Shown piece after piece: positions 1,043 to 42,541 of a stretch of 42,541 nt of DNA. The stretch's first letter is position 1. Every line of letters starts with the position of its first letter. Below the pieces are notes generated by a model. That model ran no database searches and was not told where the DNA came from. It saw only the letters and a list, made by a program, of their open reading frames with translations. Position numbers and translations under genes: made by a program. Source of the DNA: a virus (Duplodnaviria > Heunggongvirae > Uroviricota > Caudoviricetes); the IMG/VR virus record IMGVR_UViG_2529293215_000009, one strand, 5' to 3'.

Positions 1043-1356
1043 GTGGCTGGAAGAAGTGGCGCTGGGCTGAAATCCTGATACTCCGGCAGTGTGCGGGAAC
1101 GATGAGAGTCGAAAGCATCGGTTATCTGATTGGCCGTAGTGAGTCAGCCGTCAGGACGAAAGCGCGGGAACTGGGTATCAGCATGATGTTACGGGGTGAT
1201 TATCACCAGTCAGCCAAATGTTCACAGCGTGATATTGAGCTGGCGTGGCAACTGCATCAGCGTGGTGTACCCCGACGGGAAATTGCCGAAAAGTTTGGGA
1301 TGAAGTTGGGCGCAGTGAATAACTACGTTTATTTCGACAGGAGGGTTCAGGAGTGA
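1039..1356 (+). CDS. hypothetical HTH-like protein
   Basis: GTG at 1039 overlaps stop of upstream ORF (GTGA); motif [18 protein letters not shown] suggests HTH; start uncertain. Confidence 0.35.
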
Positions 1357-1655
1357 GGGTGAGGGTTTATATCGCCGGTCCGATGACGGGATATGAAAAT
1401 TTTAACCGCGAGGCATTTCACAAAACGGAAGAGGTGCTGAAACGGGAAGGGCATACCGTTTTAAACCCGGCAGTACTTCCGGACGGGCTGACTCAGCCAC
1501 ACTACATGGATATTTGCATGGCAATGCTCCGTTGCGTGGATGCGGTTTACATGCTGAAAGGCTGGCAGCAGTCGGCAGGTGCAGGGGCTGAGCTGGCACT
1601 GGAGGAGAAACCGGGCCATGCGGTGATTTTTCAGGAGGTGGGCAGTGAATATTGA
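1353..1655 (+). CDS. DUF4406-like prophage protein (nucleoside 2-deoxyribosyltransferase-like fold)
   Basis: N-terminus VYIAGPMTGYENFNREAF...GHTVLNPA typical of DUF4406 family found in lambdoid prophages; GTG start overlapping previous stop. Confidence 0.5.
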   Translation: MRVRVYIAGPMTGYENFNREAFHKTEEVLKREGHTVLNPAVLPDGLTQPHYMDICMAMLRCVDAVYMLKGWQQSAGAGAELALEEKPGHAVIFQEVGSEY

Positions 1656-1684
1656 CCCGGCGATAACGATTGATATGGCCCTGA

Positions 1685-1689
1685 ACGCC
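1685..1689. repeat. candidate 5-bp target-site duplication (ACGCC), left copy
   Basis: ACGCC directly precedes putative left terminus TGTAACC; identical pentamer at 40909..40913 directly after right terminus. Confidence 0.45.
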
Positions 1690-1862
1690 TGTAACCAGGT
1701 GAATCATTTGATACCAACGAGGGTTTTAGTGAAAGGAGGTGAAATCACCTGTAAGATACTGAAATAAAACAGGTGATGTCTGGATGAGCGCTTAAAGTCT
1801 ATTTGATACCGATTGTGCAATAATTAATCGTTTATTCTAAAATCGGCAAAACTTTTGATACT
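1690..1862 (+). repeat. left end (attL-like) with three TTTGATAC(C/T) putative transposase-binding repeats
   Basis: TTTGATACC at 1707..1715 and 1802..1810, TTTGATACT at 1854..1862; same motif in inverted orientation three times at right end; starts 5'-TGTA like Mu. Confidence 0.55.
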
Positions 1863-1939
1863 GCGATCTCAACTTTTTAAAGCGTTTAAAACTTCATTAA
1901 ATCTATATGGCAACTAACATACGGGCCAGCCTCGCCAAA

Positions 1940-2470
1940 CTAACCCGCTTTAGATTCTACCGGATTTGATTGCCTACTTGTCTCGGTTTTTTCCAAAATC
2001 TCTCTGACGCAATCGTCTGGCATATCTACAATCATCAACGCAGCCAGGCGCTTCCTGCCTTCTAGTTGTAATAAATCCTGGTTTTCTTTATCCAGCAGTG
2101 TCAGAACCGTCTCTACACCTTTGCGAGCAAGGAGATTGGTTAACTGTTCTCGTTCGTCTTTCGTAAGGAATGAAAGCATCTGTGTAAGTTGATCTCCCTT
2201 ATCACCAGAACAACCAAAATTACCACAAATACCAACATCGTTTGGTGATTCACCCTTGCCCTCTTTAAGCCACTCAAGACTAACTCCTTCACTTTCAGAA
2301 ATTCGTATAAGGATACTTTCTCTGGGGGCTGGTTGTGTTTGTCCTCCCTTGAAATAGCTGTTTAATGTGTTGATATTGATTCCCCACGCTCTGGCAGCTG
2401 CACTTCTTGAAGGGTAGCGCTTTGTAAGCATTCCAATACGTTCAATAACAGGTTCTTTTCCCTGCGACAT
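1940..2470 (-). CDS. c: prophage repressor (c-like), HTH DNA-binding
   Basis: Minus-strand ORF next to left end and divergent from ner as in Mu; HTH-like SRSAAARAWGININTLNSYFKGG; start taken at ATG 2470 (MSQGKEP) with upstream AGAGG. Confidence 0.65.
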   Translation of the reverse strand: MSQGKEPVIERIGMLTKRYPSRSAAARAWGININTLNSYFKGGQTQPAPRESILIRISESEGVSLEWLKEGKGESPNDVGICGNFGCSGDKGDQLTQMLSFLTKDEREQLTNLLARKGVETVLTLLDKENQDLLQLEGRKRLAALMIVDMPDDCVREILEKTETSRQSNPVESKAG

Positions 2471-2552
2471 AAAGATACCTCTTGGTGCTTTTCTAAGGAA
2501 AGGTTTCTTTCTATTTATCCAATTGAAAAATAAGGATAAAAGCAAAAATTAG

Positions 2553-2587
2553 CCAAAATACCAAAAATACCTTGATTTGGTATTTTT
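2553..2587. promoter_or_regulatory. operator-like repeats between c and ner
   Basis: CCAAAATACC AAAAATACC ttgattt GGTATTTTT: perfect 9-bp inverted repeat with 7-bp spacer plus a direct copy, in the divergent c/ner control region. Confidence 0.5.
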
Positions 2588-2600
2588 AGTGATGCATTAT

Positions 2601-2640
2601 TTACCCGTGCAGATATCCGCACGAATATCCGCGCGGGTAA
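2601..2640. promoter_or_regulatory. second operator-like element (inverted TTACCCG arms enclosing tandem ATATCCGC)
   Basis: TTACCCG at 2601..2607 and CGGGTAA at 2634..2640; ATATCCGC at 2613..2620 and 2625..2632, about 20 bp upstream of ner ATG. Confidence 0.4.
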
Positions 2641-2660
2641 CTTTTTAGAATAGAGGAAGT

Positions 2661-40781: not shown

Positions 40782-40826
40782 GCGCTTAAAAACTCATTCT
40801 AAAACTCAAAAGAAAAGCGCCGATTT

Positions 40827-40908
40827 AGTATCAAATAAGTTGCGTATCGGCGTTTTTCAGCGGTATCAAATGAAATGCAAATCGGTATCAAAAAAATCGC
40901 CGCGCTAT
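40827..40908 (+). repeat. right end (attR-like) with three inverted copies of the terminal motif
   Basis: AGTATCAAA at 40827..40835, GGTATCAAA at 40862..40870 and 40884..40892; outermost copy extends to AAATCGGTATCAAA, inverse of left TTTGATACCGATT. Confidence 0.55.
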
Positions 40909-40913
40909 ACGCC
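40909..40913. repeat. candidate 5-bp target-site duplication (ACGCC), right copy
   Basis: ACGCC identical to 1685..1689. Confidence 0.45.
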
Positions 40914-40979
40914 GGCCTGGCACTTCTTGGTTATTTCTACATTATGTTCTGCAGCGGACGATGGCTGTCACTGTTGTTC

Positions 40980-41186
40980 ATGAAAAAATGGAATAAACGC
41001 CGTAAGCAGGAGCAACGCCAGAAGGCAATGGATGCATTTTTCGAAGCCTTCGGAATTGACGGCATGGAACCAGGGGATCCAGCTCGCGCAATCAGCAGAG
41101 GGGGTGTAGTAATCCTTGTATATCGGAGTGAAGAGAAAAATGACGATCACAAAACAACGTGTAGAAGAAATCATATCCCGCATTGA
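40980..41186 (+). CDS. hypothetical small protein (distal part of ORF apparently split by the insertion)
   Basis: ORF 40875..41186; joining 1675..1689 to 40914 onward gives in-frame MALNAGLALLGYFYIMFCSGRWLSLLFMKKWNKRRK...; first ATG wholly outside element at 40980. Confidence 0.35.
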   Translation: MKKWNKRRKQEQRQKAMDAFFEAFGIDGMEPGDPARAISRGGVVILVYRSEEKNDDHKTTCRRNHIPH

Positions 41187-41457
41187 AATGTATGGACATG
41201 GTGCAGGGTATATCGCAGACGAGGTTAATGATCTGGCTATACTGGCGCTGAATTTATCAAATATCGCGAACCTGAAGCGATACGAGCTTGATATGGGAGG
41301 TTGCGACTCGTGCGGTCAGGATTGTGGCGCTGATATGACTGAAGATCCTGATGGTGATTATGTCCTGTTTGATGACGTGGTTAAGTTGTTTGAATTTGAT
41401 ACAACCACTCAAAAGTTAGAAATCCCGGCAAAGGAGGCAGCCAGTGGGCAAGATTGA
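41140..41457 (+). CDS. hypothetical protein (flanking prophage-like DNA)
   Basis: ORF 41116..41457; ATG at 41140 (MTITKQRVEEI...). Confidence 0.35.
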   Translation: MTITKQRVEEIISRIEMYGHGAGYIADEVNDLAILALNLSNIANLKRYELDMGGCDSCGQDCGADMTEDPDGDYVLFDDVVKLFEFDTTTQKLEIPAKEAASGQD

Positions 41458-41881
41458 CTATCAGGCACTGCGTGAGGCAGCACAAAACTATCAATCGACG
41501 CTGGCGTGGTATCAGGCTACCCCGGACAGCCCAAATGCTGAACGGGATTGTGATGCGGCTCTTGCTGCGTTTAAGCGTCACATCCGTCATCGGGAAGCGG
41601 ATATTATCGCTGATTTGCTGGATGGACTGGAAGAAGCAAAATCACAACTCAACGAGCAGCGTGAGTATTACGAAGGCGTTATCTCTGATGGGAGCAAGCG
41701 TATTGCTGAACTGGAAGCGCGGGAAGTTCAATTACCGACTCGCTACGACCTTCGATATGGACACCCGATAAATGCAGATGAGCGACATGTCATGATACCT
41801 AAAGAAAATGGCAGTTGGCTTTACCTGATTGACCTAGAACACGCATTACGCGTCGCTGGCATTCGCATCAAAGGAGAGTGA
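41444..41881 (+). CDS. hypothetical protein, lambdoid ea/ead-region-like
   Basis: 145 aa, GTG start overlapping upstream ORF; coiled-coil-like middle. Confidence 0.4.
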   Translation: MGKIDYQALREAAQNYQSTLAWYQATPDSPNAERDCDAALAAFKRHIRHREADIIADLLDGLEEAKSQLNEQREYYEGVISDGSKRIAELEAREVQLPTRYDLRYGHPINADERHVMIPKENGSWLYLIDLEHALRVAGIRIKGE

Positions 41882-41882
41882 G

Positions 41883-42074
41883 ATGAACGGACAAATATCA
41901 ATTGTTCGACCAGGAGCATGTGACGATCGCGAAATACGAATGATTATTCGTCTGGCGATGGGGAAAACAATAACTGCTCTCATTACTCCAGAAAATCTCG
42001 CATTAGCATTAACAGGAAAGTCAGACATGCCAGTAGAGCTAAAGCTGCGAAATGTTGAGATTAAGGTGAAATAG
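41883..42074 (+). CDS. hypothetical small protein
   Basis: 63 aa ORF. Confidence 0.3.
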   Translation: MNGQISIVRPGACDDREIRMIIRLAMGKTITALITPENLALALTGKSDMPVELKLRNVEIKVK

Positions 42075-42076
42075 CT

Positions 42077-42541
42077 ATGACCACTATTACCAAAGATCGA
42101 CTGCTGACAATCCAGCATTGGCGCGAAACATACGGACCGGGTAGCAACGTTGTGCTTCCAGCAGAAGAAGCGGAAGAGCTGGCACGGATTGCGCTGGCAT
42201 CACTGGCAGCAGTATCGGATGAACGAGCAGCCTATGAATTATTTATGGAGAAGCGTTTCGGAGAATCTGTAGATCGCCGCAGAGCAAAAAATGGCGATAG
42301 AGATTACATGGTATGGGATATGGCGCTTGGCTGGATTATCTGGTGTCACCGCGCCGCCATGCTTCAGGCTGGAAACTTTCGGGAAAATAAGGGTTCGTCA
42401 ACCAATAATTTTCGGGAAATCTCGGAAACGTCAACCAACTATCCGGTAACTCCGGATGGTTGGATAAGCTGTAGTGAGCGAATGCCGGATGATGGTCAGC
42501 ACGTAATTATTTTATGTGATGGCGCATTCGTTCTTTATGCG
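42077..42541 (+). CDS. hypothetical protein, 3'-partial, DUF551-like C-terminal motif
   Basis: ATG at 42077; open to window end (155 codons, no stop); TPDGWISCSERMPDDGQHVIILCDG resembles DUF551 proteins of lambdoid prophages. Confidence 0.45.
   Translation, partial: MTTITKDRLLTIQHWRETYGPGSNVVLPAEEAEELARIALASLAAVSDERAAYELFMEKRFGESVDRRRAKNGDRDYMVWDMALGWIIWCHRAAMLQAGNFRENKGSSTNNFREISETSTNYPVTPDGWISCSERMPDDGQHVIILCDGAFVLYA

Follow-up and report, generated by a model that had tools for sequence, protein, structure and literature searches.

Evidence for insertion of an Sp18-type Mu-like phage into the DUF4752 gene of an Sp6-type lambdoid prophage in an Escherichia coli O157:H7-like genome

The IMG/VR virus record IMGVR_UViG_2529293215_000009 is a stretch of 42,541 bp, called here the window, which corresponds to the entire scaffold JH961094.1 of the assembly GCA_000303855.2. 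Very probably (at a probability of about 0.95), an Sp18-type Mu-like transposable phage entered the DUF4752 gene (the homologue of ECs_1514) here by DDE transposition, the gene being part of an Sp6-type lambdoid prophage of an Escherichia coli O157:H7-like genome. The insert occupies positions 1690–40909 and is flanked by two short arms, 1–1689 and 40914–42541. A phage-in-phage arrangement had been proposed in a first-pass annotation of this DNA, and it is borne out: the insert is a Mu-type phage by its domains, and the flanks are 100% identical to the lambdoid prophage Sp6. Chance is excluded because precise transposon termini, a flanking target-site duplication and a 100% matching empty site coincide. 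Evidence contradicting a transposition event was not found in this analysis. The case is a new insertion site of a known element, and nesting of this type is already known.

The empty site is found in many genomes. With the element and one copy of the duplication removed, the joined flanks amount to 3,317 nt and are 100.000% identical, without gaps, to Sp6 of the strain Sakai and also to the O157:H7 strain TR01. A query of 800 nt that bridges the join matches uninterrupted sequence at 100% identity, and 293 complete E. coli genomes, most of them O157:H7, have a place covering at least 80% of it. The first-pass annotation had set the search for the joined flank as the test that could overturn the nesting, and the search returned the contiguous sequence in these genomes. 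The matching Sakai region is annotated as 'prophage Sp6; lambda-like phage' and adjoins potC; TR01 has the same context, with the integrase beside potC. The split gene, the homologue of ECs_1514, belongs to the accessory part of the early-right operon, where the replication genes ECs_1509 and ECs_1510 (P) lie upstream of it and the antiterminator gene Q (ECs_1524) lies downstream; the insertion site falls between P and Q. A longer sister contig extends the flank by approximately 0.6 kb, and this extension is identical to Sp6 as well.

The element has a length of 39,220 bp (1690–40909, TGTAACC...GCGCTATA), beginning with TGTAACCAGG at 1690 and ending with GCGCTATA at 40909. It is bordered by the target-site duplication CGCC, with the left copy at 1686–1689 and the right copy at 40910–40913, and the empty site has a single CGCC. 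Removal of the span 1690–40913, as suggested earlier, does yield the correct empty site, but the end at 40913 takes in the second copy of the duplication, the element itself ending at 40909. In genomes with the empty site, the match to the window extends to 1689 on the left flank and resumes at 40909 on the right. Thirteen independent Sp18-type insertions were compared, i.e., the window, 11 in complete E. coli genomes (including Sp18 of Sakai) and one in a record of a Shiga toxin (Stx) 2c phage. All of them have TGTAACC...GCGCTATA termini, with TG at the left end and TA-3′ at the right end. In 12 of the 13 insertions, 4 bp are duplicated right next to TG and TATA, and in one insertion the duplication is 5 bp long. 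The base after ...GCGCTAT is A in every copy, position -5 of the left flank varies, and A occupies position -5 by coincidence in three of the twelve 4-bp insertions, the window among them.

Both lengths of the duplication were confirmed at empty sites. The 5-bp duplication, found in L006 (an insertion in the portal gene of an O26 strain), is genuine, as its own empty site has a single CGTCT. The 4-bp duplication was checked in appC, where the empty site has a single CTAC. One GenBank record, LC727881.1, annotates a 4-bp 'duplication due to insertion', and no discussion of the 4-bp duplication of Sp18-type phages was found in the searchable literature. A 5-bp duplication ACGCC in the style of Mu, placing the end of the element at 40908, was rejected, since A is the last base of the element across the 13 insertions. 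Models with a constant 5-bp stagger (first-base replacement, shifted left end, and flap carry-over) were also considered; none of them fits all 13 junctions, and L006 truly has 5 bp.

Each end of the element carries three copies of the repeat TTTGATACY, which by motif count are presumed transposase-binding sites. The left end (1690–1862, plus strand) has them at 1707, 1802, and 1854, and the right end (40827–40909, minus strand, terminus TA-3′) has them inverted at 40884, 40862, and 40827. The window contains eight matches to TTTGATACY vs. 0.38 expected; six of these are terminal and inverted between the two ends, the outermost at a distance of 17 nt from either terminus. Two further exact copies of TTTGATACC are located inside the element, at 5048–5056 (-) and 22141–22149 (+), the former in the small intergenic space that separates the transposase gene from the MuB gene.

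Phage Mu makes a 5-bp target duplication and has a CA-3′ end. The window element shares with Mu the three terminal repeats per end, the TG left terminus, essentially arbitrary sites and a short duplication. It also has the same layout, including a repressor-position gene, ner, A, B, gam, mor, lysis, head, contractile tail, tail-fibre region with Gin, and com-mom. However, it lacks the CA-3′ end (TA-3′ in 13 of 13 copies) and the 5-bp duplication (4 bp in 12 of 13), and carries an esterase/DUF1378/DUF826 cargo between gin and com. The catalytic core of its transposase gives weak rve matches, below the Pfam cut-off, and a phmmer search of the transposase against PDB returned retroviral integrase cores only, with no chain named Mu transposase (MuA). 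The element works like Mu and is not a close relative of Mu. It is likely that the transposition geometry of the Sp18 family is unlike that of Mu, with a TA-3′ right terminus, a stagger usually of 4 bp and occasionally of 5 bp, and a core so diverged that the search finds retroviral integrases and not MuA.

The open reading frame (ORF) restored by rejoining the flanks is a real annotated gene, encoding a DUF4752 family protein of 105 amino acids (WP_001017965.1; ECs_1514). Its match to DUF4752 (PF15944) reaches 132.1 bits against a cut-off of 27 and covers the model completely (1–84 of 84; E 7.5e-39). The claim that removal of 1690–40913 rejoins the frame was correct, the restored ORF matching the empty site at 100%. 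The start proposed with that claim, ATG 1675, is ten codons short, and the true start is GTG 1645. This GTG is preceded by GGAGG and is used in both RefSeq and the Sakai annotation, and the DUF4752 model spans residues 7–90 of the ORF, starting upstream of the Met at ATG 1675. As to the membrane-anchor-like N-terminus proposed earlier, the best 19-residue Kyte-Doolittle mean is 1.54, for residues 11–29, followed by KKWNKRRK, and such an anchor is plausible.

The gene is cut after codon 15. The 5′ fragment, with the GTG start and codons 1–15 (1645–1689, +), reads into the phage end and forms a chimeric ORF of 40 amino acids with a stop at 1767. The 3′ fragment, in the rejoined frame, comprises codons 16–105 and the stop (40914–41186, +). 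An in-frame ATG at 40875, inside the right end of the phage, opens a chimeric ORF of 103 amino acids (40875–41186), 13 residues of which are derived from the phage end. RefSeq lists this chimera as a 'DUF4752 family protein' (WP_001165459.1), an annotation artefact that the insertion created.

The closest described element is Sp18 of Sakai (NC_002695.2, 5040971–5079729), the Mu-like phage of E. coli O157:H7. The two elements share their gene order and 98.86% nucleotide identity over 38,549 of 39,220 nt. Identity is 100% for the c-position protein, Ner, B, Gam, Mor, gpT, sheath, Gin, esterase, and Mom, and 99.3% for the transposase. Termini are alike, and Sp18 also has a 4-bp duplication (TAAA). 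The differences concern the site, which is sorM in Sakai and a lambdoid prophage gene here; the segment 10138–10807, in place of which Sp18 has a shorter stretch; and the head-morphogenesis protein, which is only 92% identical and alone among the core proteins does not align over its full length.

Mu-like phages of this type have been described inside other phages. Sp18-like Mu phages are integrated in several prophages and Stx phage genomes (PMC10132054), and the Mu-like prophage of O157:H7 occupies strain-specific sites (PMC7430833). Two Stx phage records from CC119 Shiga toxin-producing E. coli (LC727881.1 and LC727895.1) contain features labeled 'region of the inserted Bacteriophage Mu-like phage', which belong to the same element family and are 96–98% identical to positions 1690–9000 of the window. 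The hosts there are Stx2c and Stx1a phages, whereas here it is an Sp6-type non-Stx prophage; the target gene and the serotype background also differ.

The survey of the family covered 5,426 complete E. coli genomes. The Sp18-type left end was found at 282 places in 231 of these genomes, with up to four per genome, and the junction of the window was found in none of the 5,426. All 13 characterized sites differ and have no consensus beyond length. With no shared junction in the surveyed genomes and many unrelated loci occupied, the element therefore has no fixed attachment (att) site.

Several points weigh against parts of this interpretation. The flanks available in the window are only 1.7 and 1.6 kb long, the 800-nt probe matched two or three places in many genomes, and lambdoid prophages of O157 share modules. 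Therefore, the host may be either Sp6 at potC or another, paralogous, lambdoid prophage with the same module. The 4-bp call at this locus rests on the family pattern, as position -5 is A and the locus taken by itself also fits 5 bp. What we say of the effects on the host prophage (polarity on Q and packaging size), and of the activity of the copy in the window, is inference.

The activity bears on the alternative that stands best, in which the nested element is a dead remnant of an old insertion that no longer transposes or forms particles. In its favor, the activity of the window copy is a prediction from sequence, and some sister copies have annotated frameshifts (L007). Nevertheless, a stop-to-stop comparison of frames with intact sister copies reveals no shortened gene, the core proteins are 97–100% identical to those of Sp18 and equal in length, and neither the ends nor any of the six terminal repeats is damaged. 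Sp18 itself is spontaneously induced and packaged in Sakai; it is predicted to be intact and was not circularized (PMC2669165). These published properties cover part of what marks Mu-type phages, namely replicative transposition and headful packaging with attached host DNA. We regard a dead remnant as unlikely.

Another possibility is that the insertion was targeted, with a preference for the DUF4752 gene or for prophage DNA generally, e.g., in competition between phages. In CC119, six of ten Mu-like phages were in mobile elements (PMC10132054), and several top-ranked matches in the complete genomes hit genes of phages (tape measure, portal, tail fibre assembly, lysozyme, and DUF1367). An evenly spread sample of the left-end matches gave 19 distinct informative targets, of which three (16%) are phage genes and two are other mobile elements; the enrichment suggested by the top-ranked matches vanished in this sample and was rejected. 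The phage-gene share of the targets equals that of prophages and prophage-like elements in the Sakai genome, which is also 16% (PMC2669165). Besides, the site of the window is occupied in no complete genome, the 13 sites all differ, and dispensable DNA tolerates insertions, which also accounts for any excess. The excess among top-ranked matches and the six of ten in CC119 fit small samples together with such tolerance. Landing in a prophage apparently needs no special targeting, because about one sixth of such genomes is prophage DNA, and targeted insertion is very improbable. The idea that Sp18-type phages preferentially disable resident lambdoid prophages is speculative and unsupported by the 16% share. 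The two-component genes ypdA/ypdB recur as Sp18-type targets in several unrelated-looking strains (H140, H146, H147, and H179), which could reflect clonal descent or a local hotspot.

An assembly chimera, in which a contig of a Mu-like phage was wrongly joined to lambdoid prophage repeats with no nesting at all, might be suspected of a scaffold that is short (42,541 bp) and ends approximately 1.6 kb past each phage end in prophage sequence repeated in O157, but it is to all intents ruled out because the joins fall exactly at the element termini and are flanked by the target duplication, the flanks are adjacent at 100% identity in the empty site, and the right junction recurs, base-identical, in separate datasets. 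The recurrence was found by an exact-match look-up with the 3′ chimeric ORF (40875–41186). Over 3.9–4.7 kb, the right junction is the same to the base in two NCBI assemblies, GCA_000303855.2 and GCA_025331315.1, and in one independent read assembly, the Logan assembly of SRR427072. An exact-match look-up with the 5′ chimeric ORF of 40 amino acids gave no match.

The transposed phage, at 1690–40909 (+), appears to be intact, as judged from its identity to Sp18 and its Mu-type domains. The gene at the repressor position (1943–2470, -) encodes a protein of 176 amino acids that is 100% identical to ECs_4943 of Sp18, annotated as 'regulatory protein', and has no Pfam match. It is followed by genes for a Ner-like DNA-binding protein (2661–2909, +; HTH_35, E 2.5e-19), the transposase of 696 amino acids (2911–5001, +; Mu-transpos_C, 1.5e-17, and HTH_Tnp_Mu_1, 5.8e-06), a MuB-type AAA+ target-capture ATPase (5072–6004, +; Phage-MuB_C, 2.5e-25, and AAA_22), the Gam host-nuclease inhibitor (7357–7887, +; Phage_Mu_Gam, 1.5e-41), and the Mor activator of the middle operon (12207–12632, +; Mor, 2.8e-32). 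Between the last two lies the 670-bp segment 10138–10807 (ORFs 10131–10442 and 10415–10807), which Sp18, L002, L003, L006, and L007 lack and which L004 and L005, two more divergent copies, have. This distribution suggests mosaic exchange in the semi-essential early region.

Genes for the head and contractile tail occupy 15266–33991 (+), according to Pfam and the annotation of sister copies, and include the terminase large subunit, protease, and baseplate genes. The Mu portal is encoded at 16930–18519 (+; Portal_Mu, 3.3e-93), the major head protein gpT at 21730–22677 (+; Mu-like_gpT, 6.6e-119), the tail sheath at 24311–25813 (+; Pfam sheath domains), and the tape measure at 26805–28880 (+; as annotated in sister copies). 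A tRNA-like element is located at 19836–19915 (-), between the head-morphogenesis and virion-morphogenesis genes. It scores 30.9 bits for the Rfam tRNA family in a local scan (gathering threshold 29). Its acceptor and T arms are good, and its anticodon region is irregular and over-long. RefSeq has 'tRNA-OTHER' at the corresponding place in sister copies. ARAGORN and a whole-window Rfam scan at the gathering threshold gave no matches and missed this element.

The tail-fibre host-range region (33991–36523) is positioned like the invertible segment of Mu and includes a Gin-type serine invertase (35963–36523; Resolvase, 1.4e-51), which is annotated as 'DNA-invertase' in Sp18. An invertible host-specificity region has been reported in Sp18 (PMC2669165). 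The next genes form a cargo module (36623–39272, +) with Pfam matches to a SASA/DUF6645 sialate-O-acetylesterase-like protein (679 amino acids), DUF1378 and DUF826. A module of this type is typical of lambdoid late regions; here it lies between gin and com-mom. A homologous module occurs in the late region of the Sp6-type prophage. The DNA identity of the two modules is only 70–78%, and recent exchange with the host prophage is rejected for this reason. A literature search on nanS-p together with Mu-like phages found nothing relevant.

The right end of the phage carries the com-mom DNA-modification operon (39890–40781, +; Mom, 4e-77, and Zn_ribbon_Com on the called gene). The modification module at 40058–40909 alternates among copies of the element that are similar in other respects. 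Mom is present in the window, L003, L006, L007, and Sp18, and a 'DNA cytosine methyltransferase' follows the Com-like gene in place of Mom in L002 and L005. L004, the genes of which are unannotated, has no similarity to 40058–40909.

The first-pass annotation had recognized DUF4406-like and DUF551-like proteins in the flanks, and Pfam supports both (E 2e-33 and 2e-07, the DUF551 gene being partial) and adds DUF1627 and Ead/Ea22 domains. The left arm starts with the 3′ end of the gene for replication protein P (1–292, +; homologue of ECs_1510 of Sp6), which is collinear, at 100% identity, with positions 18701–18992 of TR01 (L001), annotated as 'replication protein P'. It continues with the DUF1627 gene (326–1042, +; E 6.8e-82; identical sequence annotated in RefSeq), a small hypothetical gene with weak helix-turn-helix matches only (1039–1356, +), and the DUF4406 gene (1353–1655, +). 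Downstream of the split gene are a hypothetical gene (41140–41457, +), an Ead/Ea22-like gene (41444–41881, +; Pfam), another hypothetical gene (41883–42074, +), and finally the partial DUF551 gene (42077–42541, +), which runs to the end of the window; all four have the same annotation in L001 and L022. In TR01 (24271–25801), Q is lost through a deletion that also joins the truncated genes of RusA and DUF6645; unlike this Sp6-type prophage, Sakai Sp6 retains Q.

By analogy with Mu, the transposase (2911–5001) would assemble on the terminal TTTGATACY repeats, and the MuB-type ATPase (5072–6004) would capture and deliver the target DNA. The 3′ ends of the element would then be joined to target phosphates staggered by 4 bp, and gap repair would duplicate CGCC. 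Such an event would inactivate the DUF4752 gene, leaving the 5′ chimera of 40 amino acids and the 3′ chimera of 103 amino acids. It would also place 39.2 kb of foreign transcription units between the early-right genes (O, P, DUF1627, and DUF4406) and the distal accessory genes and Q. Sp6 has a size of 48.4 kb (PMC7430833), and the host prophage would grow from 48.4 to approximately 88 kb, well beyond the expected capacity of a lambdoid head.

The insertion probably blocks late expression and packaging of the host prophage, the Mu-like phage staying autonomous. In Sakai, Sp6 is defective, yet excisable and transferable at low frequency (PMC2669165); here, an Sp6-type prophage is probably grounded, because Q would be parted from the early promoter and the prophage would be roughly doubled in size.

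The nesting explains why the scaffold resembles a phage whose tips are oddly lambdoid. At such a locus, prophage callers could fuse the two unrelated phages into one oversized prophage of approximately 88 kb. As at least two draft assemblies have the insertion and none of the 5,426 complete genomes does, it is a clean lineage marker. The result leaves current ideas on how prophages behave in Shiga toxin-producing E. coli unchanged. If 4 bp is the intrinsic stagger of the enzyme, how the architecture of the transpososome governs target spacing could conveniently be studied by comparison with this abundant and naturally active phage of E. coli.

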